Positions 40,261-59,343 of a stretch of 64,000 bases of DNA are shown here, piece by piece. Location of the stretch: assembly GCA_965207735.1 (NCBI GenBank), contig OZ242296.1, forward strand, positions 4,512,001 to 4,576,000, written 5' to 3'. A program made the translations under genes and the position numbers. Source of the DNA: Candidatus Versatilivorator sp. (GTDB lineage Bacteria; Acidobacteriota; Terriglobia; Versatilivoradales; Versatilivoraceae). Below the pieces are notes generated by a model, which was not told the origin of the DNA, ran no database searches, and saw only the letters and a program-made list of their open reading frames with translations. Every line of letters starts with the position of its first letter. The first letter of the stretch is position 1.

Positions 40261-40527
40261 CGCCGAGGCCCCAGCCAGGATCGCCCGCAGCCCAAGGCCG
40301 CCAGGAGTCGCAGAAACCAGCGCCGCCAAGCGAAAGCTGCTGGGCCAAAACCACGCCGACTCGGCATCTACATGCCAACCGCTCCCCAAAAACGTTAAAC
40401 ACCCACCGCCCTCGGGGATTATCCTTATTCGGAAGCGCTGCCCCGGCGGCGCTTGGCTATTTTCGAGACAGCGGCGGCGACGGATGGATCGCCTGCGTCG
40501 ACCCATCTCCAGCAGACGTCAATTCCC

Positions 40528-41967
40528 ATGTTCGATAGCAGCCGCATGGTTGAACTGACCACCCTGATTGCCTACTTGGCGGTTCTGTTGTGGATCGGGC
40601 TGGGCAGCGCCCGCCGCATCCGCACCTCTACCGACTACACGCTGGCCGGAAGAAACGTCCCTTGGGTGGTGCTGCTGGCCACCACCGCGGCCACCCTGAT
40701 CGGAGGCGGAGCCTCGGTGGGCACTGTCTCCCGCGTCTATGAAATTGGTGTGGCCGCGGCGCTGGTCACTTGCGCCTGGCACCTGCAACTGATCTTTACC
40801 GGCCTGTGGGCGGCCCCCCGCCTTCGGGGGCTCAACCTGGTCACGGTATCGGACTTCTTCGAGCTGAAGTTCGGCCGGGTGGCCCGGGCCCTGGCCACGG
40901 CTCACTGCCTTTTCTTCCTGGTGGGGGCGCTGGTGGCGCAGATGGCGGCCATGGCCACCATCACCGCAGCCACCGCCGGCATACCCTACGGCGCCGCCCT
41001 GCTGATCGGGGCCACGGTCACCATTTTCTATTCCACGGTGGGCGGAATGCGGGCGGTGGTGGCCACCGATGTCCTGCAGTTCGTGATTCTGGTGGGTGGA
41101 TTGGCTGCCGCCTCGGGCATGCTGATTTTCCAGCATGGCGGTTTTCTTCCCCTGGCTGAGCAGCTCGGGCCGGCTTACTTCCAGATTACGGGGCACTGGT
41201 CGGTGACGGGGGTCGTCAGCCTGTTTGTGGCTTTTCTATTGGGAGAGATGTTCATCCCCACCTACACGGTTCGCTGCTTCATTGCCCGCGACGCCCGCCA
41301 GGCCAGGCTGGGAGTTGCCGGAAGCGGCATCTTCCTGCTGCTGTTTCTGCCCATCGCCACCTGCGTGTTGGGGCTTTCCGCGGCCGTCCAGCCCGAAGTG
41401 CAGCAGGCAGCCGCGGAAGGGGTTCAGCAGGTCTTTCCCGCCCTGGTTCGAACCACTTTTCACCCGGTCTTTGCCGGTGTCATGATCGCCGCCATGGCGG
41501 CCGCCGCCATGTCCTCGGCCGACAGCGTGCTCTCCTGCAACGCCACCGTGGTGATGCAGGACATCTATCGCCGCTACATCAATCCTGAGGCCGGGGACCG
41601 GACCTTGCTGCGGGTGGCCGAGTGGACCACCCTGGGCACCGGAGTGGCGGCCGCCCTATTGGCCTATCTCTACCAGGACATCATCGCGGTGCTGGTGTTC
41701 GTCTACGATTTCTGGGCCCCGGGCATGGTGCTGCCCTTTCTGGTGGGTCTGTTCTGGTACCGCGCCGAACGCGCGCCCGCCGTGGTGGCCTCCATGGCGG
41801 CCGCTACGGCGGCCACCATCCTCTGGCTGTGGCTGGATCCCCCGGGAGACCTGGGCGCAGCCCTGTTCGGCGTCGGCGTGGCGGTAGTGGTGTTCCTGGC
41901 GGCCCTTCCGTTTACGCGGCGGCGCGGGCCTCATACGCCCCCGAGCTTCCGCCCGGTAGGTTCTTAA
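40528..41967 (+). CDS. Sodium:solute symporter (SSS) family
   Basis: DYTLAGR, YSTVGGMRAVVATDVLQF and AAAMSSADS; about 13 TM segments. Confidence 0.92.
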   Translation: MFDSSRMVELTTLIAYLAVLLWIGLGSARRIRTSTDYTLAGRNVPWVVLLATTAATLIGGGASVGTVSRVYEIGVAAALVTCAWHLQLIFTGLWAAPRLRGLNLVTVSDFFELKFGRVARALATAHCLFFLVGALVAQMAAMATITAATAGIPYGAALLIGATVTIFYSTVGGMRAVVATDVLQFVILVGGLAAASGMLIFQHGGFLPLAEQLGPAYFQITGHWSVTGVVSLFVAFLLGEMFIPTYTVRCFIARDARQARLGVAGSGIFLLLFLPIATCVLGLSAAVQPEVQQAAAEGVQQVFPALVRTTFHPVFAGVMIAAMAAAAMSSADSVLSCNATVVMQDIYRRYINPEAGDRTLLRVAEWTTLGTGVAAALLAYLYQDIIAVLVFVYDFWAPGMVLPFLVGLFWYRAERAPAVVASMAAATAATILWLWLDPPGDLGAALFGVGVAVVVFLAALPFTRRRGPHTPPSFRPVGS

Positions 41968-42503
41968 CGTTCCTTTGAGGAGGCCGCGGGTTCCCGGGAC
42001 GCGGCTCTTAGTCCGCCGCCTACGCGGCTGAGGTGTATCGATTGTAACGCAATAATTATAAAAGACTTACTCTGGAATAGCCCGCTTCATTCCCCTCATT
42101 GAATCCCCCTAATTGAACAGGAATCCATTGGACCATTCGGGACGTTGACGGACGGTAACTGTTTGGTCAGGCCGTGATGGCTTGGACCTGGAAGAGATTG
42201 GAGGTGCCTGTAATCACAGGCGATCCGTCGGTTCTGCTCGCTACGCCTCCCCCGGACGGCGGATGGACTCCACAGCTTGGCCGAACGCTTACTGGCGGAC
42301 AGGTCAGCCGAGGATCAACCCTGAATCCGAGGCTGTCAAGCGGGGTGGCACGCAGCCGGTGCTGCCGATCGGAGATATCGGGTTGTGCGCATCCTCCAGC
42401 CTTGCCCCTCTCGGCCCCCTGGGCATCTGTGGTCGCCTGCAGGCGCGTCGTCTCATTCAATGCAGGAACGGCGCCACCCTCCAGGAATAGGCAACTTCTT
42501 CTT

Positions 42504-43766
42504 TCATCGAAACTGAACAGAGCTTCCGAAAACGTCCATTCCCAAGAATCGTAGACCCTTCATGGTTCGGCCGTTAAATGGCGGAACACCGTCCTTGTTG
42601 ACCCAGCCAAACAACTCCAGTGTGCAGTTCTTTCCCCAGTCAGATAACCTGTACTCGGATTCATAGATACAATCGTATGCCCGTTGAACGTAATCGCCGG
42701 GTCCAAATGCTAAATGATGAAACGATTTCCGGATTCGTTCGATCCGGTTTTTTTGTTTGAACCCCTCAATGAAACTCTCAAGTCCTCCCTCGGTAAAGCG
42801 GCGCATCTCGACGAACGCCGCACACGCCTGAATCATGTCCACAATCTCGTCAATCCCAACAGATCCCAGGGACCGTTCGTCACCGAACAGACGTTCCAGT
42901 CGGTCAATGCGGTCGACTCGATCCGCATAAATGGTCAAGTTATCCTTCATCTTCATCCATTCCGTGACGTATTTGTAGATATTGTTCTTCAAATCGTCTC
43001 CGGAACGGAGTGGTTTCTGATGGAGAAGCTCATCCGTCGTTTGGCCCTTCACCCAATAGAGAAAGCGGTCAATCTCGTACTTGGAGGAAAATTTCGTAAA
43101 GGCTGGGTGTCGGTTTGGTGCTTCCGAGTAGGTTGTTTCTACCGACCGGTAGGCAGGGATCAGCCCTTCCACATAAAAGGCGCGAAATGTCTCAAGATAG
43201 GTTCTTGTGCGATTTACGGCCTGGGAGCTCACTCTGATCGTCGGAGGAGACCATGAGTCGATTCCTGGGATGGAAGGAAATGACCGAGGCTTGTTGTTTC
43301 GTCGCCATTCCCGGAAACAATTCAGCGTATGGTCTGTTAGAACGCTTGCCGAACTCCACAATTCACCAAACAGCGCGGGAATGTCGTCAAATACCGGATC
43401 TTCGGACCGGACGGATACAGATAGTTCTCTGTTTAACCTGAGGCCAGGATCTGTAAGGTTGGCAGACCCGACCAAGGCAACATTGTCCAGAATGTAGAAC
43501 TTTGCATGAAAATCATCTGTAAAAAACCGGATATCCACGTTTCCAGATGCTCTGGCTTTCTCCAGAGCTTTCGTTGAAGTGACTTCACATAGGCGCACCA
43601 ACAAGAGAATCTTCCCGCAACCAGCTGATACCAGAATTTCTATTGGTTCGGAATCAGTGAAAAAGGGACAGGCAAGGTATGCCGTTCTAACATTCTTCGC
43701 ATGCCTGCGAAAAAAGTTAATCGTCAAATCCCCGGCGCCAGGTCGATTTGTAAACGATTCATTCAT
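42504..43766 (-). CDS. Phospholipase D-like (HKD) nuclease-domain protein
   Basis: Single HKD-type motif FHAKFYILD...VGSANLT...NRE; lower GC. Confidence 0.85.
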   Translation of the reverse strand: MNESFTNRPGAGDLTINFFRRHAKNVRTAYLACPFFTDSEPIEILVSAGCGKILLLVRLCEVTSTKALEKARASGNVDIRFFTDDFHAKFYILDNVALVGSANLTDPGLRLNRELSVSVRSEDPVFDDIPALFGELWSSASVLTDHTLNCFREWRRNNKPRSFPSIPGIDSWSPPTIRVSSQAVNRTRTYLETFRAFYVEGLIPAYRSVETTYSEAPNRHPAFTKFSSKYEIDRFLYWVKGQTTDELLHQKPLRSGDDLKNNIYKYVTEWMKMKDNLTIYADRVDRIDRLERLFGDERSLGSVGIDEIVDMIQACAAFVEMRRFTEGGLESFIEGFKQKNRIERIRKSFHHLAFGPGDYVQRAYDCIYESEYRLSDWGKNCTLELFGWVNKDGVPPFNGRTMKGLRFLGMDVFGSSVQFR

Positions 43767-43947
43767 AGTCCCGTGACCGGCAACCTGGGAGGGATTTTGG
43801 CCGCGTTGGTTGACCTCCCCCCAAAACGCCTTGATGACCTTTCTTAAGCCTTATCTACAAATCCTGGTAAAACATGCGGCTTAGTGCCCAAGCCAATGAG
43901 GAGGGCCCCAGAAGGCTGCGGGGGACAATCAGGGATCACTGTACAAC

Positions 43948-44637
43948 CTACTTCCCACCGAATGTGTTGAACAACTCAAACGAATACTGCCTAAAGAATT
44001 TAAGATAGCGATAGAAGAGCATCAAGCACACAACAAGGGCTGTGTACCCATACCTTGTCAGCATAGGTTCTTCCGCTCCGCCAATAGCAAATTTCATCAG
44101 ACATCCTATACCAACCACGCCAGTTGCGAATGATAGATTACGGCTGAAACCATATTTGTTGAGGAAACTATCAAGCCGTCGGAGAAGACGGTCGTCGGAC
44201 CTAATTTCTTCACAGAATCTCACATGTAAAAACAGATCCTCCCCCAACACTGTGATGCCTTGAAGACGAGCTTTCTCCTGAATCCTTTTCCTTCTTTGGA
44301 TAGGCAAAGCCACATAAAATCCAGAAAACAAAAATCCACGAATTCTGGGTCTTCTTTCGCGAAACAGATTTACACTTGGTTTCTCAAGTACTCTACGAAC
44401 GATACCGTCTTCCAGCAGAGCCTTTGCCGGTGTTGCCGCGATCTGCCCGGCCACGTAGATTCCGAGAAGTAAGACGGCACTATCGACGACCCCGAATTCA
44501 TGACCGATCACTTCAGGAAACCCTAAGACTATCTGCATCCCAACGACAAGAACCAAGCCGGAGGCTAAATGGCCGAAGAAGTCGTATGGATCAAATGGTA
44601 TGCGTTCCATGGAAGATATTTTAGATCGATCAATCAC
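43948..44637 (-). CDS. Hypothetical membrane protein (about 4 TM)
   Basis: Two N-terminal and two C-terminal hydrophobic helices around a basic soluble loop; lies 25 bp after the MBL stop codon. Confidence 0.75.
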   Translation of the reverse strand: MIDRSKISSMERIPFDPYDFFGHLASGLVLVVGMQIVLGFPEVIGHEFGVVDSAVLLLGIYVAGQIAATPAKALLEDGIVRRVLEKPSVNLFRERRPRIRGFLFSGFYVALPIQRRKRIQEKARLQGITVLGEDLFLHVRFCEEIRSDDRLLRRLDSFLNKYGFSRNLSFATGVVGIGCLMKFAIGGAEEPMLTRYGYTALVVCLMLFYRYLKFFRQYSFELFNTFGGK

Positions 44638-44924
44638 TCAATCGGTGGTGTGCAACACATACCTATACGTTCCACGATACCGAGCCGTCTTTACGCGTCG
44701 ATATCACGTGTCGCCGTTCCCCGTTGAAATTCACTCCAGAAGCATGCCTCCCATAAATTGATGCCATTTCTTGAGTTGCATATTTGATTGGACTGTCTGA
44801 GAAAACAACGACGTCTGGACGACAGATTCTAAACACTTCTGCACAGTAGCCGTTCTCTCTACCGTGGTGTGAGGCAAGAAAAACATTGACATTAGACAGT
44901 TTGCTCTTGAATTGATTGTTATTT

Positions 44925-46411
44925 GAGCCTTTTGCAAAATTCGCAGATAGCGGGAATTTTCACGTGGGGAAAGATCAAGGAGGGCAGGTGGAAGGAGGGG
45001 CAAGACCACTGTCTGTTGTATCATGAAGGTGTCTGAACCACATGATGAACGGAGGTGGAACTTGCCCCTTAGGGAAACCCTATCACGACACTGGTTCCGG
45101 TTTCAACGAGAGCTGTTTCCCCTGCTGGAGGAAGTTTTGGGGCCTCTGGGAGAGCGTTACCAGCGGCTGGTGCAGGTATTGGAGTTGGTGCGGGTGGAGG
45201 AGTTGCTGCCTTACAGTCGGGGCTGGCGTGGCCGGCCGCTGGAGGATCGGGCAGTGCTGGCGCGAGCCTATCTGGCGAAGTCGATGCTGGAGGTGGCGAC
45301 CACGCGGGGATTGGTGGAGCGGCTGAGGAGTGAGGGGAGGCTGCGGCGGCTGTGCGGCTGGGAGAGGGCGTGGGAGGTACCGAGCGAGTCGACCTTCTCG
45401 CGGGCCTTTGCGGAATTCGCTGAGAGCGACCTGCCGGGGCGTTTGCACGAGGCATTGCTGGAGGAGACGCTGAAGGGCCACTTGGCGGGGCATGTGTCGA
45501 GGGACTCGACGGCGATTGCGGGACGGGAAAAGCCAGCGGCCAAGGCTGCGCCGGAGGCCAAGCGGAAACGCCGGCGGGGCCGGCCGCCGAAGGGCGAGCG
45601 ACGGCCCAAGCGGTTGAGCCGGCTGGAGCGGCAGGGGTCGATGACGCTGGAGGAAATGTTGAAGGAGTTGCCCAAGGCCTGCGACATCGGCGTCAAGCGC
45701 AACGCCAAGGGGCATCAGGAGAGCTGGACCGGCTACAAGCTACACCTCGACGCCATTGACGGCGGGATTCCGGTCAGTTGTCTGCTGACCTCGGCCTCGG
45801 TGCATGACTCTCAGGCAGCCATTCCGCTGGCGACGCTGACGGCAAGGCGGGTCGAGAGTCTCTACGACTTGATGGACAGCGCCTACGATGCGCCGGAGAT
45901 CCGGGCCTTCAGTGAGAAGCTGGGGCATGTGCCGATTATTGACGTCAACCCCCGCCGAAGAGCTACCTTGAAAGCCGAGCGGAAGCGGGAGGCACTGGCC
46001 CGGCGCTGTATCGGCCAAGTGACTCCCGAGGCGCGGCGCTACCGGGAACGCTCGACGGTGGAGCGGGTCAACGGACGGCTCAAGGAGGAGTTTGGCGGGA
46101 GGCAGGTGAGGGTTCGCGGCCCCGACAAGGTGAGGTGCCACCTGATGTTCGGCATTCTGGCCCTGACGGTGGATCAGTTGATGCGCCTGACGCTCTGAAG
46201 ACCGGGTTGCCACCCCCAACCGCACAGCAGGTTCGCCCGCCTCAAGGCCGGGAGAGGGTAAGCTGTGCCTGCGTCCGGCGACCGCTGGCCATCCGGCCAT
46301 CAGATTCGGGCTTTTTCCTTCAAAAGGGTCTTTGCAGCTGGGTAGTCACCGCCGGAACATCACTGTTGCCAGCCCAATGTCATGCCCGATTCCGAATTTT
46401 GCAAAAGGCTC
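44925..46411 (+). mobile_element. Insertion sequence (DDE, IS5/IS1182-like), 1487 bp, copy 2
   Basis: Same length, TIRs and protein as copy 1; TSD ATTT (44921-44924 and 46412-46415). Confidence 0.93.
45023..46198 (+). CDS. DDE transposase (identical protein to 10960-12135)
   Basis: Identical translation in the ORF track. Confidence 0.93.
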   Translation: MKVSEPHDERRWNLPLRETLSRHWFRFQRELFPLLEEVLGPLGERYQRLVQVLELVRVEELLPYSRGWRGRPLEDRAVLARAYLAKSMLEVATTRGLVERLRSEGRLRRLCGWERAWEVPSESTFSRAFAEFAESDLPGRLHEALLEETLKGHLAGHVSRDSTAIAGREKPAAKAAPEAKRKRRRGRPPKGERRPKRLSRLERQGSMTLEEMLKELPKACDIGVKRNAKGHQESWTGYKLHLDAIDGGIPVSCLLTSASVHDSQAAIPLATLTARRVESLYDLMDSAYDAPEIRAFSEKLGHVPIIDVNPRRRATLKAERKREALARRCIGQVTPEARRYRERSTVERVNGRLKEEFGGRQVRVRGPDKVRCHLMFGILALTVDQLMRLTL

Positions 46412-47149
46412 ATTTAGCAATCGCTTCCATCCGACCACCTCAAGATCACCCGGAATGATGAGCCGAACAGTTCCAAACTCAAGGAACGTCACAAGACTGA
46501 TGTTGTTGGTGTCGCTAAAATCAGTTCTATAGTTGTTGCAGAAAGTTGAATACTGCACCCCAGGAAATTCGGGATAAGCGGTTGGGCTACTCGTATATGT
46601 TCGAATCATATCGAGCATTGAACCCATCGCTACGGAAATCGGTCCAGATTGCTGTTTCAACCTCTTCAGTTGCTCCCCTGAGATGCTTCTATTTCGACAA
46701 AGAAGTCGGATACTCATTTCCGTGCGAAGATTGGGAAGATCACTTATGTGGTCTTCGTCGTAGTTAGTCACAAAGAAGTAATCAATCCGCTGAATCCCCC
46801 TATCAGGCAAGAATACGGATGGTCGATTCTGCTCATGGTGTCCACAATCCCAGAGCATTACGTTTCCGTTATCGTGGACAAGTGATATGCACAAGCCATG
46901 CCCTACATCGTTAATTGTCACTTTCATAGATCTGACTGCTCCAGTTGACCTCCCCCCCAATTTAGGTCCACCCCCAGAGTGAGGAATTGGGTATATTATC
47001 GCCGTCGTCGAGGCTGTGGGAAAGTGGGAAACTCGCGTCCAGTGACGTTTTCCGGCACAGTCTACACCACAACGGCGGGAGCACCGCCCTCTGCGAGGGG
47101 GGAATACGGGGCTTGTCTGCGCAACTGGTCCGCACAATTCGACAATGAC

Positions 47150-47470
47150 TTTCTAATTGCGGTCATTTGGCGCCACGAGTTTGTCCCCGGAAACGTAAGT
47201 CGTCGATCATTCCTGCGCCGTTGGAGGCTGGCGTGTCCTGCCCTATTGGTAGATCTTCTCCATGATGGCATTGAGGCCGCCATGGCGTTCGACCATCGCC
47301 CAATCGGCATCGGCGATGGCGTGGCGGAGAAAGTCGCTTCCTGGGCAGCCGGTCGACTGTCGCTGGCTCCCCAGAACCCGAGTGCCCGCCCGCCGGGTTC
47401 GAGATGTTTCTGCTGTCAGGCCATCGCGACCACCTCGACGCGGCGGCCCCTCTGCCGGAGTTTTTCCCAA
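47150..47470 (-). pseudogene. Degenerate C-terminal remnant of the Rep-like gene
   Basis: LRHAIADADWAMVERHGGLNAIMEKI matches LRWAVSSADWETVERYGGLNAALKKI of 54384-55379. Confidence 0.75.
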
Positions 47471-47532
47471 TGGTTCCGGCGCGTAGCGCGCGTACTCGTC
47501 ACACTGTTGATCGTCAAATCGCCCTGATCGTT

Positions 47533-50136
47533 CTAGTAGTCGGTGGCCGTGTCGCTGCGGTAAAGGGCTTCGGCGTTGGTGGCTTCTGCGATGTCCTTGC
47601 GTGTGGAAGCATCCATGAGATCCAAGACACGCAACGTGCCTTCCGTCATGCGCGCAACCGATTCGATTCGGTGGAATCTCTCGCCGTAGGTGGCGGCGAA
47701 GTCAGCCAGGCCGCACAGCTTGGGAATCGCGTCGGCGAAGTGAGGGCCGTGGGGGTCGACAATCGAGACCTTTGTCTTCTGGCCACCGCCGTGGAAGAAC
47801 AGGAAGTCGGGGCACATCCGGCGCCAATTGTCCCTAGCATTCTGGTACGCGATTGCGAGTGCATCGCCTGACGGGCGTGGAGGGTTCCGATACCAAGCCT
47901 GGAACCCCGGGCGTCCCATCTCCTTGTCGAGGACTTCGATTTCCCACTTGTTCAGTGAGCCGACGGGGAAGTTCCCGTTGCTGTCGGACATTAGATGGCC
48001 TGTCCGGGTCTCCAACTCGTTGCCGTCGGCGTCCTTGGTTTCTTCGGTGCGGACTCGGGGCTGCTTGACCTCGATCACCTGTGGCTCGGCCGACATGCCC
48101 TTGATCTCGTCGTATACGGCCCGGCGATCGTCTGTTAGGCCCTTGATGGCAACCCGGTACTCACCGAACCACCGTTTGGCAATCCTGTCGGCTTCCCGGT
48201 CGAGCTCGTCCGATACGCTGTCGATCTGTCCTAGAGCGGCGACCTTGACATGGGCGTCAAACAGACCGTCGTCGTGTTCGTCCCCGCTCGCGAGGTGGTC
48301 AGCGTACTTGCGTGCCAAGTCCGCAGTAAAGGTACGGCAAGCGGCCCTGAAGTCCTCCTCGACGGATTGCTCATCAGCGACTGCCACGAACGGCTGGTAC
48401 CCAAGAACCTCACCGTCGATGACGCGGGTGACGACAGTCTCGCCCTGCACCTCAAGGATTCCCTTGCTGGCGGCAGCCACCTCTACTCGATGCTGGGCCA
48501 GCAGGCCGTCAAGCTTGGCGAAGAGCCTCTGATAGGCATGCTTGCGTGCATTCGCCCTCAGTCCATCTCGCGACAGTGCTTGGCCCAGTGCAGCTAGTCT
48601 TCCTACTGGGCGCGCGGCCCTCCGCGGCAATGTCTGGGAGGGCACTCCATCAAGCGCATTCCACACTTCCTCCGAAATCGCTTGGTTGACGTTCATGTCG
48701 ACTGGTGCCAGGAGGACGCGGCGTCCAGTTCCACCCCCTGTTCCGTCGGCGTCGTGCTCGCGGTCGCCCATCATGGCCCTCGCAACTCTGTTGGCAGTGT
48801 TCCGGTCAAAGCACGGCAACAGGCACGCGACGGAGTTCAGCACGTCGTCGCCCGGCACCCGTCTGGCCAGCGGCGTCCGGACCATTCGCCCAAGTAGTTG
48901 GGTGATATGGGTCTCGTCCTGAGCTGGGCGAAACGACACGAGCACCTCAGCGCGCGGACAGTCCCAACCAGTGGAGATTGCGTCCTTTGCGAAGAGCACC
49001 CGGATGCTGGTGCGGTCCTGCACAGTCTCTGGTCGAATGTGGGGGACATAGAACCCGCCGACCTTGATCGCCGCGTGGTCGCCGAAAACATGGGCCATCG
49101 CGTGTTCGGCGATTTCCGGCCACGTCTGGCGGACCGTGGTGAACGCAGACTGAAGCAACTCATCCGAGGGCATGTTCGGCACTTGGACGACCAAGAGCGG
49201 CACCACCGCGTCCGCCGACATGCCTTCCCGCTTAGAGTATGCTCGCCATCGATCTGTGGCCTCCTTCACTTTCTCGGTGGCGCGGGCGAGCAGGACAGTG
49301 TTGAACTGACCGATCTCGGCGGGGAAATCCAATCGGATGTTGTCCTTGAGCAGTCCGGATTCCTGAATCCGCGCGGGGTCAACCACCACATGTGGATAGG
49401 TGGTCCGCCCTTCAGCCCTTTCCATCGCCTCATCAAAGCGTTGTACGGTCGCCGAGATTCCCCAGACGATTGGCACCGGCGGGACACCGTTTGCACCATT
49501 GATGAGCCGCTGCACGATCGTTGCCTTCTCCGTCCGGTCGTTCTGCTCAGCTCGGGCGCTTTGGTTCGGCGGCCTCATGCCCCGGTGGGCTTCGTCGAGG
49601 ATGAGGTATAGGGTAAGCCTTTTGTCGGAGATGGTGTTCGCCAGCGTATCCCACAGCGTATAGGCTCGCGCGTCCGGCATCGGCAGGAGGTCACGCTGTG
49701 CCTTTTCCGCAGCATCCTCTGGTGCTCCCCTGACCAGCAGGGACTTCCTCGCCAGCTTCTGGCGATTGAGGAAGTAGACCTTGCCCGCTTCGAGTTTCGC
49801 TCGGTTGAAGGTGTTCTGGATGACCACGAAGCGTGAATGAGCGAGACGATCGGAGGCATCTAGCAAGCGGAACCGGGTCTGCTCATTGAGCGACGGGTCG
49901 TCTGTGAACCACAGCACGACAGCGCCGGGGTCGGAATCGAACTCGTGGGTAGAATTGCCGTTGAACAGCGCCTCGATCACTGCTGCTGCCATCACGGTCT
50001 TACCCGCGCCGGTCGTTGCCGTCAACGAGAATGCTACCGGCGACCGCCATCGATGCCAGTCGTCCCGCGCGCGAGCGAGAAGCCCCAGCGCATCGGCGAC
50101 AGCGTCCTCCTGGTATTCCTTGAGCGTGTAGCGCAC
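47533..50136 (-). CDS. res: Type III restriction-modification restriction subunit (helicase plus PD-(D/E)xK nuclease)
   Basis: TTGAGKT, ILDEAH, SAT, ISTGWD, QLLGRMVR, WYRNP and PDFLF...IVDPHG; GTG start just after the mod stop. Confidence 0.88.
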   Translation of the reverse strand: MRYTLKEYQEDAVADALGLLARARDDWHRWRSPVAFSLTATTGAGKTVMAAAVIEALFNGNSTHEFDSDPGAVVLWFTDDPSLNEQTRFRLLDASDRLAHSRFVVIQNTFNRAKLEAGKVYFLNRQKLARKSLLVRGAPEDAAEKAQRDLLPMPDARAYTLWDTLANTISDKRLTLYLILDEAHRGMRPPNQSARAEQNDRTEKATIVQRLINGANGVPPVPIVWGISATVQRFDEAMERAEGRTTYPHVVVDPARIQESGLLKDNIRLDFPAEIGQFNTVLLARATEKVKEATDRWRAYSKREGMSADAVVPLLVVQVPNMPSDELLQSAFTTVRQTWPEIAEHAMAHVFGDHAAIKVGGFYVPHIRPETVQDRTSIRVLFAKDAISTGWDCPRAEVLVSFRPAQDETHITQLLGRMVRTPLARRVPGDDVLNSVACLLPCFDRNTANRVARAMMGDREHDADGTGGGTGRRVLLAPVDMNVNQAISEEVWNALDGVPSQTLPRRAARPVGRLAALGQALSRDGLRANARKHAYQRLFAKLDGLLAQHRVEVAAASKGILEVQGETVVTRVIDGEVLGYQPFVAVADEQSVEEDFRAACRTFTADLARKYADHLASGDEHDDGLFDAHVKVAALGQIDSVSDELDREADRIAKRWFGEYRVAIKGLTDDRRAVYDEIKGMSAEPQVIEVKQPRVRTEETKDADGNELETRTGHLMSDSNGNFPVGSLNKWEIEVLDKEMGRPGFQAWYRNPPRPSGDALAIAYQNARDNWRRMCPDFLFFHGGGQKTKVSIVDPHGPHFADAIPKLCGLADFAATYGERFHRIESVARMTEGTLRVLDLMDASTRKDIAEATNAEALYRSDTATDY

Positions 50137-50138
50137 GG

Positions 50139-52247
50139 CTAAACCTGACCCGTGTTGATCATAAAGTTGGTGAGATACGACTCGTATAGCCGCACGGCTT
50201 CCACCCTTGCGGGCAGTTCGCCACACACCGTTTGGAACCCGCGGTCATCGTCCGTCACAACGAAAGCCATTCGGACGGTTTGGGCTCGGCGAACGGTGGA
50301 GAGGAACCCCCCGGAAGCGTCCAGATCGAAAAGTACACCGTACGTGTCCGCCACGTCGTAGTCATCACAGGCCACTTCGATTCGGCGTCCGTGCGACCCG
50401 GCCCTGATCCAAAGCAGCGGCGCTATCGCCTCGAACGCCCGGTTGTGGGCCACGGGTCGGGGTGCCTCGTAGGTCATGGTGAAGAACTCCACATTCTCCT
50501 CGAACCCGTCGGCAATTGGGAGGTCGTACATGTAGTATCCTTCGACCGGCACTCCGCTTGGGGTCTTCCCGGTCACGGCAGCCGCTACGCGGGGCTTCGT
50601 AATGTGCTCACAGATCCCCAGCGCCTCCCAATGGGGGTCGCCTGGCCGCAAACCCTGCTTCCAGAGTCTCTCATGTTCGTCCGCCGACACCTCATTGTTG
50701 GTTACAAGGACGCATTGTCGCCGTCCACTGTCTTGCTGATTGAGGCGCATCACGGCATGTGCGGTGGTCCCTGAGCCAGCGAAGAAGTCGAGAACCACAG
50801 CCTGAGGCTTAGCGGCGACGAAAGTCGACAGGGCATCCTCGACTGCGTAGAGAGACTTCGGAAACGGAAACGATCTATCCGGGAGCAGCGAGCGCAGGAT
50901 CGACGTGCCGTAAGCACCCGCGTCATGACGACCATCTCGCCATACCGTACTGCGCCGCCCTGGTTTACCGCCCGAAAAGACGACGATCTTAGAGCCGTCT
51001 GGGCGCGTACCTATGACCCGAAGCTCCCTACCGGCCTCAACGAGCTTGATGTTCGTGGTCGTCAGGTAGGAGATCGTGTACGGTTGAGGCCCCTTCCCTG
51101 CCGTCACACGAACGTAACCGCCTTCCAGCGCCGCTCGAAGCGTCGCAGGCGTGAGGCCCCATATTTTCTCAAGGCCATCCGGATCCATCGGAAACACCGG
51201 CACAGCGCCACGAACATCAGGCACACTCGCCAGAGGCTCATCGGTCTTCATCGGTGATCCGATCTTGACGATCCGCTCACTCTGAATATCCACGTAGATC
51301 GGGTAGAACTGATTCGGACGCGACGCGCGAACCAACGTCTTCTGCCCACGCCGAAGGTACTGCCAGCGCACCTCCTGTTCGTCCCCGTCGAGCGGAGTCG
51401 TTGCCTGGACCGCTGCGGATCCGAGGAATACGAAGAAAGCGTACTCGTCGACGCGCGAAAATTCACTGGTCCTATTGGTTCCCCGGGGACTAATAGTGAT
51501 GCTCACCATCTGGACACGACTGGCCTCGAACACCTGCTTCAGCAACAGTCCCAGCCTCAGATACTCCTTCTCGTCGATCGTGATAATCAACACGGAGTTG
51601 TCGGGGTTGAGTAGCCGCTTGGCGAGCTTGAGTCGCCTTTCCATCATCGCCAGCCACTTCGAGTGGCGGTAGGCGTCCTCGCTGTCGACGTAGTCGTTAT
51701 TGTATTTCCAGTCCCTCGCGCCGGAGTTGTAGGGCGGATCGATGTAGATCGCATCGACGCGCCCTTCGTGGGTGTAGAGCAGGACCTGAAGCGCGTGGAA
51801 ATTCTCGGCGTTGATGACGGTGTGGAAGGGTCTGTCGCCACCCCGCTCCACCTTGCCGGTAGATACCAGCCCAGGGAACACCGGATCGCGGAACTCGACT
51901 ACAACGACCAAGTCCTCAACAGTCCGGCTCGTGGCTCCCGCCTGCTTGTCGCGGTGCGGGACCAAGTTGGCCACCCGCTTCCCGCCTGCGATTCGGCGAA
52001 TCCGCGTAACCCTCCACAAGCGACGGTCAGCGCTTTTCGGCTTCTCGCCCCGCCCGGCCAGGAACCTGACCTTGTCGCCTTTGCGCACTTGGCGGCCTGG
52101 CAGTTCCACCGTCTCGGGAATATGTCGCTCGAAGTTGAGGCCAAACGCACGCCGCCCGGACAGCGCATCCACCTCCCGCTTCAGGTCGGCAGCTAGCTGC
52201 GGGTCTTTCGTCTCTACCTGCCGAAGCAGGTTGCTCAACCTCGACAC
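50139..52247 (-). CDS. mod: Type III restriction-modification N6-adenine methyltransferase
   Basis: IYIDPPYN before DFFAGSGTT (beta order); FPFPKS. Confidence 0.9.
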   Translation of the reverse strand: MSRLSNLLRQVETKDPQLAADLKREVDALSGRRAFGLNFERHIPETVELPGRQVRKGDKVRFLAGRGEKPKSADRRLWRVTRIRRIAGGKRVANLVPHRDKQAGATSRTVEDLVVVVEFRDPVFPGLVSTGKVERGGDRPFHTVINAENFHALQVLLYTHEGRVDAIYIDPPYNSGARDWKYNNDYVDSEDAYRHSKWLAMMERRLKLAKRLLNPDNSVLIITIDEKEYLRLGLLLKQVFEASRVQMVSITISPRGTNRTSEFSRVDEYAFFVFLGSAAVQATTPLDGDEQEVRWQYLRRGQKTLVRASRPNQFYPIYVDIQSERIVKIGSPMKTDEPLASVPDVRGAVPVFPMDPDGLEKIWGLTPATLRAALEGGYVRVTAGKGPQPYTISYLTTTNIKLVEAGRELRVIGTRPDGSKIVVFSGGKPGRRSTVWRDGRHDAGAYGTSILRSLLPDRSFPFPKSLYAVEDALSTFVAAKPQAVVLDFFAGSGTTAHAVMRLNQQDSGRRQCVLVTNNEVSADEHERLWKQGLRPGDPHWEALGICEHITKPRVAAAVTGKTPSGVPVEGYYMYDLPIADGFEENVEFFTMTYEAPRPVAHNRAFEAIAPLLWIRAGSHGRRIEVACDDYDVADTYGVLFDLDASGGFLSTVRRAQTVRMAFVVTDDDRGFQTVCGELPARVEAVRLYESYLTNFMINTGQV

Positions 52248-53541
52248 GAGTCGCTCCTGGTTGGTCTGATCCGAGTTCCCATTGACTCTACAGCGCTTCG
52301 TGCCGGGGCCAAGGGGTATGGAACGGCCATTCTCCTGGCCGTGGGGTTGGCCTTCGTTGGGGAGCGCCCATCACCGCTGCCCGAACTATCTTGGTGAGGG
52401 CATCGGTTGCGGTATTCTTGCGAGTCGTGGATTGACTTTTGTAGGCCTGCGCCATAATCAGCAGCGGTCAGAAACTCAGTATGCAGTCAGCCCGTTGATG
52501 CGCCGGCCTAGTCGGCCGTCGTATCAATCGCAGCCAAATTCTACCGGTGACCATACCTTCATTTCAGAGGCGCTAACGTCAATCAGCGCCTCGTAGACTT
52601 CGCTGACCATGATTCCCATCAGACACCCGCTGTCGTGGAGCACTTTGCCGGGCGGCTGCGTTTTTCCGGTCCCTAACGTACCAGAGATACCCCGGAAGCC
52701 GTCACAGCTCCGACTTTCTTCTCAGAGGCGGATCTCTCTCCCTGTGGGCAAGATCCGATATTTCGGGTTGATCGAGCGAAACAAAGCCCGTATTTGCCCT
52801 GTGCTGCATCTTCTCGGGGGCCGGCGACCCGCAGTATCTGGGATTTCAGAGGACTGCGGGATCTTATCAGTATCATGAGCAATGGTTACGATGCTGTAGC
52901 ATGAAGCAGGAAAGGAGAGCGGCATAGCGATCTGCTTCCACTTTAAGAATCACTCTCTCATGGTCCTACCTTGGAGTCCCACCTCTCAAACATTCTATGG
53001 TATCTCAAATCACTGACTACAGGAATGTCGCACTAAAATGCACCTCGAAGCCGGTCCAGTAGAGGGGTTCAGCTCTAAGAAATCACGACCCGGGAGCTAC
53101 GTGAAAACATCGATGTCCAAAGCACCACCATCCCCGGACTTATTGAATTGCTTTTGGCCTCACGAAGCTTCGGCTCGATGTCTACTCCTGTCGTTTGGAT
53201 GCCCCGCTGTATGTCTTCGGATGAGCTGTTTTTTGCATACCGAACCTGATTCGGCAGGTGTGCATCGAGCCAAACTGGTTCACCGCGTGCAACTCTTCGG
53301 TTAGGGAATTGAAATAGCGAGGGGCTGTTGACTGTCCATAGCTCGTACAGCCTACACTCGGGCAAAGAGGTGCGACAAGTTACGGACCATCTTTCAATAC
53401 CAGCAGCCACCGCGAGTCTAGAGGGAGAGCAAATCCGGTGTGCTGGAGTATGCTGGACCCCAAGAAAGTCGATTTTAGAGCAAGTGTGGGCCTTGGTGTG
53501 GTGCGGAGCCGGCCTAAAAATTCCGGTCTAGGTGGACAGGC

Positions 53542-53949
53542 TCATTGATTGAGTCTCTGGGTACGGACGAGGGTGCGGTCGGGGGAGCGCTCGACGACCT
53601 CGGTAATGGTGGCGTTCCAGGAGTCCCCGGAGCTGGCCGTCACAGAGATAGTGAGGCCATCGAGGTCAAGAGGGAGGGTGCGGGTATCGCCCTGGAAGCG
53701 AGCGCCCCAGGCGCCGCCCTTGATCCTGGCGGGGGTCCATCCAGGCAGGGGGACAGGGGGCGCGGCCTTGACCGGCGCGACCGGCTCATTCGCGTCCGTG
53801 GGAGCGGGACCGAACTCGCGGTCGAGGGCCTCGTCGATGAGGGCGCGCAGCCAGGCGCCGACGTTGAGGTGTTGCTCGGTGCGGAGGCGCTGGAGACGTT
53901 GACGGGTTTTGGGAGAGACGCGGATATGAAGTGGAACACGGTGCAACAT
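53542..53949 (-). CDS. Small RHH/CopG-like DNA-binding protein of the element core
   Basis: LHIRVSPKTRQRLQRLR...NVGAWLRALIDEALD beta-alpha-alpha pattern; conserved in 57674-57949. Confidence 0.7.
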   Translation of the reverse strand: MLHRVPLHIRVSPKTRQRLQRLRTEQHLNVGAWLRALIDEALDREFGPAPTDANEPVAPVKAAPPVPLPGWTPARIKGGAWGARFQGDTRTLPLDLDGLTISVTASSGDSWNATITEVVERSPDRTLVRTQRLNQ

Positions 53950-54383
53950 AGGACACACATTAACACATAGAGCAACAAGAAGGTTACAACGCTACACGGA
54001 GACACACGCACCCACTGTGAGCGCGAAAAGGTGCTCGATGGCCTTCCCGCCAGGGATCACTGTGGAGGGAGCGACCCCGAAAAGGGGAGGGGAGGTGGTG
54101 GATTTTGGCGTGCGCCACCTCCCCCTGCCCGGTGGCGCACCAGCGCCAAAAACCAGGGGGTCGCTCCCTCCACTTCCTCCCCCTCCAGTCGCGGCGCACC
54201 GGCCGACGCGGGGACACGCCGGGCGCCGGCCCGCCACGGTTGTCGCAGCCGACGCGGGGAATCCGTGCCAACCCGCTTCCCATAAGGCTTTCCAGGCAAG
54301 GCCTCGACCACAGCAGCGAGGACGCGCCCTCTGAGAGAGAAGCGTTGTGGTGGTCAAAAGCGTGCGCCACCTAAGTGAGCCAC
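53950..54383. other. Conserved structured non-coding region (candidate origin or ncRNA)
   Basis: 17-bp inverted repeat GTGGAGGGAGCGACCCC/GGGGTCGCTCCCTCCAC enclosing nested hairpins; second copy at 57950-58407. Confidence 0.6.
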
Positions 54384-55379
54384 CTACGTGAGCCGCCCCC
54401 CTTTTGAAAGGTGGCCACCCATACGACGGCATCTGCTTGACCCCCAGAGGCGGAAATCGTCGATCATTCCCAGGCGCTGGGGCTCCGGCGCTGCCTGCTT
54501 CAATTGGTTGATTTTCTTCAGGGCGGCATTGAGCCCGCCATAGCGTTCGACTGTTTCCCAGTCGGCGCTGGAGACAGCCCACCGGAGATTGAGAAGCTCT
54601 CTGCCGGCCTCGGTCAGGTCTCCGCCTACCCAGGATCGCATCACCCGCTCGGCGCGGTCCAGCAGTTCCTGCTCCCAGGCGACCGCAACCACCTCGACCC
54701 GCCACCCTAACTCTCGGAGCATCTGCCAGAGCGGCCGGTGGGCCTCTCTCCAGGAGTCCAGCTCCGTACGGGTTCCCATGCCGGGGTCGATGTAGACGAA
54801 CAGAGCCGCCTCCGGCCCCATGGCAACCGGCATCCTGAGGGGGAAATACTGAACCCGCCCCTTGGCATGGCCGGCGTAGATCGTGCGGGGCAGCATGAAT
54901 GGCTCGATCCCGAGCTGCTCAAAGCAAGCGAGCTTCTCCCGCTCTGTCGGCAGCCAAGACAACTCCGGATGATCGAGCACGAAATCGAGCGATAGCAGTC
55001 GCCGCCGGGTGACTTCAAGCGAGGTCTCCCGGCGGTGACGGATGGGGGGGATCTCCAGCTCCCGGTAGATCTGCTTGCCGAAGATCCGGCAAATCCGGCG
55101 GCCGTCGGTGACGGTCTCCGACGCTATCGGCTTGTGGGATATGCGTGTGCGGAGCAACGCCCGGATAAAGCGGTTGGCGCTGGACTTGGCGAATCCGAAG
55201 AAGGCCTCGACCTGGTCCCGGGTGAACAGGCCCGAGTGCAGGCAGACCAGGGTGATCCATTCGGCCTGTTGGGGGGTGAAGCCCAGAGGCCTCAGCAGTT
55301 GTTCCCGTCCCTTCAGGTGAGGAAACTGCGCCGGTTCCTTGGGCCGGCCGGCCTGGAGAAAGGTCATCAGGATTCCCAT
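54384..55379 (-). CDS. Hypothetical protein, possibly replication-relaxation-like (wHTH N-terminus)
   Basis: Open 331-aa ORF directly after the integrase; three degenerate copies elsewhere in the window; the family call is by resemblance only. Confidence 0.7.
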   Translation of the reverse strand: MGILMTFLQAGRPKEPAQFPHLKGREQLLRPLGFTPQQAEWITLVCLHSGLFTRDQVEAFFGFAKSSANRFIRALLRTRISHKPIASETVTDGRRICRIFGKQIYRELEIPPIRHRRETSLEVTRRRLLSLDFVLDHPELSWLPTEREKLACFEQLGIEPFMLPRTIYAGHAKGRVQYFPLRMPVAMGPEAALFVYIDPGMGTRTELDSWREAHRPLWQMLRELGWRVEVVAVAWEQELLDRAERVMRSWVGGDLTEAGRELLNLRWAVSSADWETVERYGGLNAALKKINQLKQAAPEPQRLGMIDDFRLWGSSRCRRMGGHLSKGGRLT

Positions 55380-55487
55380 GGGGTTCCACAGGGGGAAATA
55401 CGGGGGTTCAGCGGGAAGCTGCGTTTCACCGCCAAAGAGCAGGGAGATGTCAATGGATCGTTCCAGAACCGATCCGCTTGGACCTCT

Positions 55488-56720
55488 TTACTTTCGGGGC
55501 TCCCGGTCCTCCCCCATCCCCTGGTACAGGTAACGCGCCCAGTCGTCCATCAACGTGCGCCGGCGCTCGAACAGGTCCGAGCGGGCATAGGCTGCCTCCA
55601 CCCGGTTCCGGACCACATGCGCCAGGGCCGCCTCGATCACCTCCCGGGGATGATTGGTCTCCTCACCTGCCCAGTCACGGAAACTGGAGCGGAAACCGTG
55701 CGGCACGGCTGCAATGCCAAGCTCGCGCAGCATCCACCGCAGCTGCTTGGCATCGAGAGGCTTCCCGCCCCTATAGGTGAACACCAGCGGACCGTCGCCC
55801 TCTCCGAGTGCCTGGGCCTCCTCGAGAATCTCCAGGGCACGTCCGCACAGCGGCACCCGATGCTGGCGGTTGGTCTTCATCCGCCTGGCCGGAATGGTCC
55901 ACACCCTCCCGCTGCGATCGATCTCCGCCCACTCCGCCCACCGCACCTCGCCCCACCTGGCTGCCGTCAGCACCAGGAGCTCGAAGGCCAGCTTGGCGGC
56001 CTCCAATGCCGTCGATCCCCGCACCGTCCCGATAGCGGCAGCCACCTCCCGATGCGGTAAGGCCTTCATGTGCCGGGCAACGTGTTGTTGGACACCCAGA
56101 ACCGGTCCGATCCGGTCGCAGGGGTTGTCGAGGCGGTACTCCATGGCCACGGCCCATTCCAGGACCGCACGCAGGCGCAGGCGCACCCGCCGGGCCGTCT
56201 CCGCCTTCCGGTGCCAGATGGGCGTGAGGATCTCGAGCACGTCGGCGCTGCTGACCTCGGAGACCGGCACCTTGCCGATGCGCGGGAAGGTCACCCGCCT
56301 CAAGCTCGACAGCCACTCGCGGGCGTGGTCCCGACTGCGCCAGCCGGCCTGCTTCTGTTCCAGCACAAGCGAAGCAGCTTCGGCGAACGTAGGGATACCC
56401 TCCGTCCGTCGCCTCTCCGCCAGAGGGTCTCCGCCCTCACGGGCGAGCTTGCGGTTGGCGAGCGCCTTCTCCCGGGCCTCGGCCAGGGGAACGAGGGCGA
56501 GGCTGCCGAGTCCGAGCTCACGGCGGCGGCCACGGATGACGAGGCGTTGAATCCAGCTGCGGGTTCCGGTAGGCTGGACGAAGAGGTAGAGGCCGTTGCC
56601 GTCGGCGTGTCTTCCGGGCGGAGCGGAGCGGAGGAAAGAGGCCGAGAGGGCCTTTTGGGGATGGCGGCCGGTGGGCTTCATCCCGGTTAACGGTCGGTGT
56701 GAGTTGTTTACTGCATCCAT
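55488..56720 (-). CDS. P4-like tyrosine integrase with arm-DNA-binding domain
   Basis: DGNGLYL/ELGLG arm domain; catalytic R (TAARWGE), K (MKT), HGFR, LAH and Y (AAYAR). Confidence 0.95.
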   Translation of the reverse strand: MDAVNNSHRPLTGMKPTGRHPQKALSASFLRSAPPGRHADGNGLYLFVQPTGTRSWIQRLVIRGRRRELGLGSLALVPLAEAREKALANRKLAREGGDPLAERRRTEGIPTFAEAASLVLEQKQAGWRSRDHAREWLSSLRRVTFPRIGKVPVSEVSSADVLEILTPIWHRKAETARRVRLRLRAVLEWAVAMEYRLDNPCDRIGPVLGVQQHVARHMKALPHREVAAAIGTVRGSTALEAAKLAFELLVLTAARWGEVRWAEWAEIDRSGRVWTIPARRMKTNRQHRVPLCGRALEILEEAQALGEGDGPLVFTYRGGKPLDAKQLRWMLRELGIAAVPHGFRSSFRDWAGEETNHPREVIEAALAHVVRNRVEAAYARSDLFERRRTLMDDWARYLYQGMGEDREPRK

Positions 56721-56870
56721 TCCCCCATTATATGGGGGATGGTAGTGGATTACAAGAGATGATGCAGGAGGGTAAAGCCGCTGGAGTTCAGAGATAAACT
56801 ACTGATAAAAAAACCGTTATAAACGTTACTGGACGCCGATAGACCTTACTGGAATATGAGTGACCGTTAA

Positions 56871-57545
56871 CTACGCGGCTAAGGCAGTGCAGAGCTCACA
56901 CGACCCCGGGCTTCCACCCGGGGCTACACGAGACCGCAGCTACGCTGCTCTAAAAGGATGGCTTGCAGGTGAGGTTTCCTCGGACGACCCACGCCAACCG
57001 CCGCATACGCGGCTCTCCCCTAACCCACGACACTGCCGGTGGATAGGATTTTTCAAATGATTGTCTCCGGGCGTCCGCTCCCCAATTCCGCAAAACGTCG
57101 TTCAAGAAACTCAAGTATCACTCCCCCCTTGAGGAGGAGTCGCAGAAGCCGAGCCGAATGGCGAAGGCTGTTGCGGTGGGGGGCCAACGCGGCGCCTGCG
57201 AGTGGGAGCGCCGTATATAGGGGACGAAGCTCTTAATCCGCCGCTGGGGCGGCGCAGCACTCACACGACCCCGGGCTTCCACCCGGGGCTACCCTGAGCC
57301 GCAGCTACGCTGCTCTATAAGGATGGCTTGCAGGCGACCTTGTCTCAGGCATCCCATGCCAACCGCCGCATTCGCTGCTCTCCCCTAACCCACAACACTG
57401 CCAGGGGGTAAGAATTTTTCGGTTCATTATCCCCGCGCGCTAGCCAGAGGGTCAATGCGAGCCGCGAAGCGGCGGCAGCAGGTAGCCGTGGGCGTCAGCC
57501 CATGGAAACGGGTAGCGAATCTCCCGAGCCGCGTAGGCGGCGACT
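56871..57545. repeat. REP cluster: two ~190-bp direct units (56871-57060 and 57221-57420), one REPIN arm, and an inverted REP unit (57459-57545)
   Basis: Shared CTCACACGACCCCGGG...GCAGCTACGCTGCTCT...CCCCTAACCCAC. Confidence 0.85.
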
Positions 57546-57673
57546 ACATCAGAAAACTTGTAACTGCTCATTATAATAGACTTATTGTGGTTTGTCCTGT
57601 TGTAATCCCCTCATTATATCCCTCTATTTGAACGGGAATCCACTGGACTTTTCGGGACGTTGGTGGACAGGTC

Positions 57674-57949
57674 TTACGATGTTGCAACCCCCGAGACTCT
57701 GCCTCCGAGACCGTCGAGCCGGGTGGTAGGCTGCCCTTGGGTTCGGATCGGAGATATCGGGTTGTGAGCATCCTCCAGCCTTGCCCTTCTCGGCCTCTGG
57801 CCATCTGTAGTCTTCTGTTCTTCGAGGGCTTCATAGACGAGGGCGCGCAGCCAGGAGCCGACGTTGAGGTGCCGCTGGATGACGAGGCACTGGAAACCTT
57901 GACGGGTTTCGGGAGAGACATGGATATGAAGCGGTACACGGTGCAACAT
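57674..57949 (-). pseudogene. RHH gene copy fused to the element-end sequence
   Basis: MLHRVPLHIHVSPETRQ...LVYEALE is homologous to 53542-53949, then diverges. Confidence 0.65.
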
Positions 57950-58407
57950 AGAGACACACAACAACACATGGAGCGACAAGCAGGTTACAACGCTACACAA
58001 CGCTACATGGAGACACACGCAGCCACCGTGAGCGCGAAAAAGTGCTCGATGGCCTTCCCGCCAGGGATCACTGTGGTGGGAGCGACCCCGGAAAGGGGAG
58101 GGGAGGTGGTGGATTTTGGCGTGCACCACCTAACCCTGCCCGGTGCCGCACCAGCGGCAAAAATGAGGGGGTCGCTCCCTCCACTTCCTGCCCCTCCTGT
58201 GCGACGCCACGACGTGCCATGCGAGGCGGGGACGCGCGGCGCCGGCACCGCACTGCGCTTTACCGTAGAGGAGTCGGGGAATCCGTGCCAACGCGGGTCC
58301 AATAAGGATTTCCAAGCACAACCTGGACCACAACGGCGAGGGCTACACCCTCCGAGAGTGGAGCGTTGGAGTGGTCAAAAGCGTGAGCCACTTGGTGCGC
58401 CACCTGT

Positions 58408-58700
58408 GTGAGCCACCCCCCATCGGAAAGGTGGCCACCCATACGACGCCACGTCCTTGACCCCCCGAGGCGGAAAACGTCAATCATTTCACGGCCGTTG
58501 GAAGCCGGGCTTTCCTGCTCCTATTGGACGATATTCTCCATGATGACATCGAGGCCGCCATGGCGTTCGACGGTGTCCCAACCGGCATCAGCGATGGCTT
58601 GCCGCAGCCCGGTCGCGTCTGTCTTGGCCGCTGCCGGGTCTCGGGTTGTCCAGGCCTGGAGAACGCGCTGGGTGAGTCGAGGTGTTGCTGGCCCCAAGCG
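58408..58700 (-). pseudogene. Rep-like gene C-terminal remnant with internal stop
   Basis: LRQAIADAGWDTVERHGGLD...*...MIDVFRLGGSRTWRRMGGHLSDGG. Confidence 0.8.
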
Positions 58701-58828
58701 ACCGCAGAGACTTCGACAGTCCGGCTTGCCTTGCAATCGGCTGCTTGAATATAGTGGGTCTTATCCGTTCAAGAAATCGGGGGCGGTACAGCCTGTCGCG
58801 GCAGCGATATCTACGACCTAATGCCGAG

Positions 58829-59050
58829 TCAAACTACATCACGAGGCCACTCTGGAAGGTAGTTGTGTTTTTGAACAATGGCAAGTTCTGTGGATGCGAA
58901 AAACTGACTACAATGCAGTTCGTTATTTGGCCCCTGTGACCATTTGCACAGCACGGATCCATCACATCGGACTTCAGCCACTATCATAATGGGTTCCTTC
59001 TGATCCTTTTTCTGAACTGAATCGCCGACTTGGAATTGTTCTGTGCTCAT
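58829..59050 (-). CDS. Small DUF2158/YodC-like protein
   Basis: FQVGDSVQ.K...P.M.V......V.C.W pattern. Confidence 0.6.
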   Translation of the reverse strand: MSTEQFQVGDSVQKKDQKEPIMIVAEVRCDGSVLCKWSQGPNNELHCSQFFASTELAIVQKHNYLPEWPRDVV

Positions 59051-59343
59051 TGATGTCTCCGTGAATTTGCCTCCTAATTCACGAGAATTCCTGTCCTTTT
59101 CCGGATGGGTGTTCTGTGGCCGCCCCCTAGTCCGCACCCGAAGAGCCGGCGACGAGACTGTCGCATCCAAGACAACCTCTTGACATAACGACGTGATGGA
59201 AGGCCCGTGTGTCTCTATTCTATCTCTTCCGCAGCTGATACTCCCTTGCTCTCTCAAGGAAAGCGGGTTGAAACGTTAGCTGTTCCTTGTCAAGCAATAT
59301 CGCCTCTGCTCTTCGGGCTTGTCCGGCAGCCGGGACTACTCCG

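Follow-up and report, generated by a model that had tools for sequence, protein, structure and literature searches.

An integrative island interrupting a REP hairpin in Candidatus Versatilivorator, likely placed by a P4-like integrase

Integrases of the IntSXT subgroup, which is defined by PF13356 (DUF4102) and contains the P4 cluster, are carried by islands, integrative and conjugative elements and P4-like phages, and the clusters described in the accessible part of the source insert beside single-copy essential genes, namely tRNA genes for the P4 cluster, guaA and prfC (PMC8138268). It has been reported that 22.8% of mapped islands are intergenic (PMC12424338); non-tRNA sites are therefore ordinary, whereas multi-copy repetitive extragenic palindrome (REP) sites are not. 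In the literature searched, mostly papers open without subscription, no tyrosine-integrase island with a REP as bacterial attachment site (attB) was found, and REP targeting appears in print only for insertion sequences (ISs). The present work concerns an island in a window of 64,000 nucleotides (positions 4,512,001 to 4,576,000 of OZ242296.1), which lies within a single 5.26-Mb contig of its source genome, a Candidatus Versatilivorator sp. referred to as G000; coordinates below are those of the window unless stated otherwise. The island resembles the IntSXT elements in the N-terminal DUF4102/PF13356, central and catalytic domains of its integrase, in the location of the integrase next to one attachment (att) site, in its short core repeat and in the carriage of cargo, but its family differs from the clusters described in that source by using multi-copy repeats, with at least 23 copies in one genome.

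The island splits a REP hairpin at a fixed position, to which the P4-like integrase that it carries likely brought it by site-specific recombination across a 7-bp overlap, a reading to which we assign a probability of about 0.85. The ends are precise and the integrase is intact; both orthologous and paralogous empty sites are present, and the island is one of 23 sisters, with targets that are specific to each clade. The features on which this reading is built are the following.

41967–42029, + strand: left part of the interrupted REP composite of about 250 bp, ending in the target hairpin at 42015–42028 (5-bp stem, 4-nt loop)
42020–42029, + strand: left att core, 10 bp identical, with a putative 7-bp overlap at 42020–42026
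42030–42160, + strand: conserved left end of the element, with an integration host factor (IHF)-like site at 42057–42069 and CCCC-rich repeats at about 42090–42115, likely arm-type sites
55488–56720, − strand: tyrosine integrase, IntSXT/P4-like, clade A, intact, 410 aa (PF13356, PF22022, PF00589)
56712–56870, + strand: conserved right end, with CCCC-rich arm-like repeats at about 56720, an IHF-like site at 56795–56807 (− strand) and phased TGGAC/TAGAC words
56871–56880, + strand: right att core, with a putative 7-bp overlap at 56871–56877
56881–57080, + strand: right part of the interrupted REP composite, an Acido-Lenti-1-like double hairpin
57221–57440, + strand: adjacent copy of the composite, whose target hairpin has lost 9 nt
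57455–57545, + strand: REP doublet (Rfam Acido-Lenti-1 at 57460–57505), whose hairpin at 57525–57543 is the left att of a 29-kb clade-B sister that continues past the window

An earlier account made from the DNA letters (the sequence-only reading) had two 14-mers, at 42020–42033 and 56871–56884, bracketing 14.85 kb that ends in an intact integrase. Positions, enclosed length and integrase stand, but the repeat is identical over 10 of the 14 bp (42020–42029 and 56871–56880) and the region exchanged is likely 7 bp long (42020–42026). The 10-mer core is present four times in the window, against 0.10 expected, and 87 times in the genome; the exact hairpin, said to occur throughout the window, has three copies there and 64 in the genome, so that this statement went too far. 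Once joined in a script, the outer flanks align across the junction with intact copies of a dispersed repeat of about 250 bp, and 19 such copies cross the joined junction by at least 15 nt on each side. The unit at 57221, to which the joined flanks had been compared, does lack 9 nt in the hairpin, but it is a poorer model of the empty site than copies elsewhere, the best of which matches at 90.5% over 253 nt.

The locus was compared with related genomes (other G-numbers) and with sequencing runs, represented by contigs only (X-numbers). A contig of X13/X14 spans 40500–42241, the left junction included, with 0 differences; since it is independent, an assembly artefact at this junction is excluded. 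The right junction is bridged by none of the contigs listed. Run X1, which comes from a different study than X13/X14, holds a single contig of 1,597 nt that passes from a symporter gene, about 94% identical to that of G000, through the core and into 34 nt matching the window from 56885 onward; the word on the right side shows one difference in the 30 nt shown and occurs once in G000. By its sequence this contig is a contiguous empty orthologous allele with a short right side, of the kind that the sequence-only reading had called for in related genomes. Moreover, the downstream gene follows 145–566 bp after the symporter gene in five of the ten congeners with enough sequence, versus 45,070 bp in G000, where the gap also holds the second sister element, of 29 kb. 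At the same locus, another clade-A left end lies in a hairpin of G002, and an inverted copy in G010 contains a right end. Both tRNA genes of the window lie more than 34 kb from the island.

The genome G000 contains 25 integrase matches of more than 300 residues (55–100% identity), together with 26 left and 23 right ends of the element, every right end having a left partner. The paired elements are 2–44 kb long and sum to 356 kb, or 6.8% of the genome; none of the 23 has an end within 3 kb of a tRNA gene, in agreement with the earlier claim that the island sits in a REP and not in a tRNA gene. In 21 of them the rebuilt site matches intact copies elsewhere, and in 20 the 7-bp word, taken at a fixed distance from conserved end motifs with two offsets allowed, is identical at both ends. 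The integrase is located 150 bp from the core, a distance fixed in all copies. Clade A comprises the focal island and a second one that splits another repeat copy at the same base, and its word, CTACGCG, covers the loop and right arm of the hairpin; clade B, with 15 elements, uses GGCGGCG in the left arm on the other strand, so that the two clades occupy adjacent 7-bp windows of one hairpin on opposite strands. The five elements of clade C lie in a repeat that translates as a decayed gene start, which we take to be the relic of a gene of the GxxExxY family, and the remaining paired element sits in the integrase gene of a sister. Clade D consists of four integrases that are more distant, with unpaired ends that adjoin a word from the sisters' backbone. 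The proposal that this integrase family uses a multi-copy REP as attB therefore holds for clades A and B (17 of 23), while the others use the GxxExxY-relic repeat, sister elements and integrase genes. A quick tree of 53 rows, which contains no reference P4 integrases, recovered groups A, B and C as clades (SH-aLRT 99, 100 and 99); a search for clade-diagnostic residues gave no clear signal, these being spread over all integrase domains. Four copies of about 2 kb, with an internally deleted integrase and 90–97% alike, are found at separate loci, one of them in a different repeat context, and mobilisation in trans is therefore indicated.

The family is present in 12 of 13 congeners. By eye, 11 of 25 pattern matches were accepted as clade-A right junctions, in six genomes, and paired clade-A islands of 8.5, 12.5 and 16.1 kb were found in G011, G012 and G005, at unrelated loci and with unrelated cargo. 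These three have only backbone and ends in common with the two clade-A islands of G000, and their flanks are without match over 200 bp. The orthologues of their sites in G000 have no element and no hairpin; because the hairpin is also absent, they are not clean empty alleles. Across relatives, a script found 32 left ends in 30 loci (13 A, 5 B, 4 C and 10 unclassified), some with an ATTC-loop variant, and 0 of the 30 loci has a tRNA gene. A search for an att arm derived from a tRNA found none, the longest word shared being 7 nt. Among 80 related loci, which reach Gemmatimonadota and other phyla at 68–72% identity, one has a tRNA gene, not at the end, and the right ends of distant relatives, each seen on one end only, adjoin Ig-like coding repeats, other intergenic repeats or integrase genes; the expectation that other family ends would lie at repeats and not at tRNA genes or in random DNA was borne out. 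In Gemmatimonadota relatives of about 70% identity, the integrase-proximal end falls at a TVTVT motif, in frame, within surface proteins that have Ig-like repeats, and their integrase seems to target a repeated coding motif. Several members among the related loci sit in other integrase genes, the family's own included, and in G000 one family member lies inside another integrase gene (genome positions 3871659–3885264).

The target hairpin has 161 copies in the genome, compared with 6–7 in three trimer shuffles, and 54 of 63 full-core hairpins are placed outside stop-free stretches of at least 250 codons, although such stretches make up 86% of the genome; from this extragenic position we infer that landing would be harmless. 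Many landing sites had been proposed, and many exist, but for clade A they are fewer than the 60 strict hairpins and belong mostly to one REP-composite subfamily. It is conceivable, although unlikely, that the integrase is loosely specific, requiring a 7-bp match and weak flanks, and that REPs dominate the surviving insertions because they are abundant and extragenic and not because they are recognised. Such an explanation would agree with a short core whose 87 ten-mer matches in the genome are supplied in 63 cases by full-core REP hairpins, with the degenerate or non-REP contexts of some relatives' ends (the 10 of 32 left unclassified by the script), and with the quite different targets hit by related clades. 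However, bare 7-mers are so common (418 for clade A and 4,575 for clade B) that flanks must matter, yet all 17 A and B elements in G000 occupy the hairpin at one register and orientation, and the sites of clade A come preferentially from the subfamily whose upstream sequence is A/T-rich, which makes up about 13 of the 63 hairpin sites.

The target also belongs to a repeat that is itself mobile. The hairpin composites hold the Rfam motif Acido-Lenti-1 (124 matches among 150 candidates scored), given as a candidate RNA in the accessible part of PMC2864571; the motif (e.g. 57460–57505) behaves like a REP module flanking Y1 transposase genes, so that it may represent repeated DNA rather than a gene for an RNA. 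The nine best-scoring Y1_Tnp loci of 30 fetched, from eight congeners, carry the hairpin, eight of them on both sides, and the single Y1 match of G000 is flanked by another repeat. Within the composite, the 5' GTAG foot is carried by the palindrome next to the targeted hairpin; the target can fairly be called a REP, the hairpin being the accessory one and not the GTAG-footed palindrome. A second family of genes resembling REP-associated tyrosine transposases (RAYTs) is flanked by tandem copies of a different repeat. The islands might also have entered the repeat once or a few times and then been copied passively with it, by movement of the RAYT/REPIN type or by recombination between repeats, and the patchy distribution of the repeats between congeners, the identical flanking subtype of three of the four 2-kb copies, and the presence in the genus of RAYT-like genes flanked by the target hairpin can be cited in its favour. 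We regard this as very improbable, since the integrases diverge by 7–45% and the cargo differs wholesale, the flanks are unrelated outside the repeat, near-identical small copies lie in different repeat subtypes, and no member of the matching RAYT clade turned up in G000; for autonomous copies, passive copying is already largely refuted. That the direct repeat is a transposase target-site duplication or an assembly artefact at a repeat is extremely improbable, for although a duplication would also leave 7–10 identical bp at both ends and an IS is present inside the island, there are no terminal inverted repeats, the island has asymmetric ends bearing arm- and IHF-like sites, every copy has its integrase at the same 150 bp from the core, the IS is bounded by ends of its own and missing in X2, and the left junction is present in independent contigs.

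Integrase-mediated insertion into the hairpin thus remains the preferred reading, and several observations weigh against it. Three of the 26 left ends are unpaired, 2 of the 23 rebuilt sites have no intact paralogue, and three of the 23 pairs differ by one base in the 7-bp overlap. One C row falls outside its clade in the tree, which was a quick search, and the X1 bridge has a right side of 34 nt only. If insertions that disrupt genes are selected against, the specificity could look higher than it is. The junction of an excised circle, as expected at the attachment site of the free element (attP), was not found in the runs, in 14 genomes or in Joint Genome Institute metagenomes, contigs and assemblies being prone to drop rare forms. 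With regard to transfer, the VirB4 family was not found in G000, and the Atlas lead from OrfB, a backbone protein described below, to Replic_Relax is weak (0.85, with the family on 41% of members).

The remaining parts of the island are a backbone next to the integrase and a variable cargo.

42504–43766, − strand: cargo, PLD-domain protein with weak DrmC/DpdK-like matches
43948–44637, − strand: cargo, 229-aa hydrophobic protein with no family match
44925–46411, + strand: later IS insertion, with a DDE transposase at 45023–46198, 16-bp terminal inverted repeats and a 4-bp duplication
46346–47137, − strand: cargo, metallo-beta-lactamase-fold protein (PADLOC PDC-M48B), split by the IS
47533–50226, − strand: cargo, Type III restriction subunit (Res)
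50139–52247, − strand: cargo, Type III methyltransferase (Mod), PADLOC E 6e-243
53542–53958, − strand: small backbone open reading frame (ORF) that by eye resembles a ribbon-helix-helix protein and matches no family; paired elements contain 10 of its 11 hits in the genome
54062–54173, no strand assigned: nested palindrome of about 110 nt inside a module of about 430 bp, at the OrfB 3' end, in 23 of 23 paired elements
54384–55379, − strand: OrfB, 331 aa, with a predicted winged helix and a weak restriction-endonuclease-like domain

The PF13356 (DUF4102) N-terminal arm-binding domain of the integrase was matched over the cut-off (E 1.5e-17), and the catalytic residues R-K-H-R-H-Y are all present, with motifs at 255, 282, 341–344, 368 and 378. 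CP4-like integrase domains in the PDB match it, the best phage matches are 35–42% identical, and among named records it is closest to integrases of Ca. Versatilivorator and related Acidobacteriota. OrfB had no match in Pfam/NCBIfam, where no known MOB relaxase family was hit either, and none in Foldseek at E 0.001; its predicted endonuclease-like domain gave a weak match (Z 7.6, rmsd 4.0, 124 aligned), and the protein is offered, as a lead from these predictions, as a relaxase/Rep candidate. The palindrome is kept even in the 2-kb mini-elements while its inner hairpin is highly variable: among 41 hits, 23 have one perfect outer stem, 6 are doubly compensated and 37 inner sequences are distinct. 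It has no Rfam match at gathering score, and its pattern no match in viral contigs; by its conservation pattern it is a candidate origin of transfer (oriT) or replication. Mating-pair or virion genes are absent from the island's main ORFs.

The suggestion that the cargo serves defence is correct in part, as seen in the Type III Mod/Res pair, but large surface and secreted proteins are carried as well: the cargo of sister clade-A islands, labelled by eye, includes surface-looking proteins of 1,634 and 2,423 aa, secreted proteins or a DUF262-like pair, and defence is one cargo class among several. An IS-free form of the metallo-beta-lactamase-fold gene region is present in run X2, and the summed contig depth of the IS (44925–46411) in X13/X14 is about 400 versus 10–15. 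A second X1 record, of 2,504 nt (window 42059–43774), has the PLD cargo and a similar left end with a different flank, and because of that flank the PLD cargo must sit elsewhere in the empty-site strain. The best independent run carrying matching DNA is labelled a sponge metagenome; runs X2–X12, with small shares only, were left out of the habitat reading. Nearby, 57545–64000 is the left part of the 29-kb clade-B sister, with a module copy, small ORFs, an integrase fragment at about 60860–61110, an outer-membrane efflux protein and a CNNM-like membrane protein, the latter labelled by eye, and position 866 is the right end of a 7.6-kb clade-B element (genome positions 4505278–4512866) whose integrase is deleted. 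The tRNA-Ser(GGA) island at G000:C1 632916–654830, whose integrase is 43% identical and which shares the palindrome module and has arm-like repeats of a similar kind, is possibly a tRNA-targeting relative of the family.

Comparative evidence gives the island itself good support as a real unit, and the mechanism proposed here is worked out from sequence. The island would form a circular intermediate whose attP depends on IHF and arm sites; a lambda-type attP is expected to carry both, and IHF-like sites with one mismatch to what we take to be the consensus are present at both ends. Strand exchange would then proceed across the 7-bp overlap common to the attachment site of the island and the hairpin, with homology required. 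A 7-bp spacing fits tyrosine-recombinase strand exchange, and the overlap variants of clade C, which agree at both ends, fit a homology requirement, the three exceptions noted above aside. Retargeting may occur through changes in the overlap and in core-binding residues, and spread from cell to cell may use the palindrome as oriT together with OrfB and machinery borrowed from a helper. The target exists in many copies and is mobile itself, so that newly arriving islands would not compete for one site and could accumulate to dozens per genome.

A wider reading is put forward tentatively, and we hold it more doubtful than not: that these elements represent an undescribed, phylum-crossing 'repeat-landing' family in sponge symbionts, in which P4-like integrases freed from tRNA genes retarget by changes of 7 bp (to both arms of one REP hairpin, gene-relic repeats, Ig-like coding repeats and each other's integrase genes) and move between cells by means of a new relaxase and a palindromic origin. 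If this were true, repeat-landing elements would be a main route for such symbionts to acquire and rearrange their defence genes and large surface proteins.

Multi-copy targets likely allow a normally single-site enzyme family to spread cargo to many places, so that a lineage of site-specific integrases acts like a targeted transposon, with many sites, dozens of copies and 6.8% of a chromosome. REPs would serve directly as the places where large islands dock and, being mobile targets, would move the island hot spots with them. Island finders that anchor on tRNA genes or filter out multi-copy attB sites, as PMC12884075 does by its own account, would miss or drop such islands. Clades that are close to one another, at about 80% identity, but differ in their 7-bp targets provide a natural series for the study of specificity change in tyrosine integrases, and could serve as multi-site integration tools in a phylum that is hard to engineer.

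Several known systems share part of this behaviour. The repeat REP13E12 of M. tuberculosis has few copies, and the recombinase of the Neisseria phages Nf1/MDA is Piv/IS110-like and not a tyrosine integrase. As far as the accessible parts of the sources describe them, phiRv1 in REP13E12 is similar in having a site-specific integrase and an attB in a repeated sequence, but it is a prophage with a serine recombinase, and its target is a long repeat and not a hairpin REP (PMC9317374). The filamentous phage Nf1/MDA of Neisseria, which enters dRS3, is likewise a mobile element in an abundant short intergenic palindrome, and differs in being a filamentous phage (PMC3898611). In helper-embedded satellites an integrase clade repeatedly targets genes of other mobile elements, as in clades D and E and the distant relatives, although the targets there are late genes of prophages and not repeats (PMC10111431). 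Integrative mobilisable elements and oriT-only islands likewise carry an integrase but no mating apparatus, and their minimal derivatives retain a cis site; in the family described here, by comparison, the palindrome and OrfB are only candidates for oriT and relaxase (10.64898/2026.01.13.699239). Finally, the REP-targeting IS1397, IS621, ISKpn1, ISPa11, ISPpu9/10 and ISPsy8 insert at a fixed position and orientation in REPs and have many extragenic sites, but these are small elements with IS3/IS110 transposases, whereas the present family brings to such sites a tyrosine integrase with 2–44 kb of DNA (PMC1525189).

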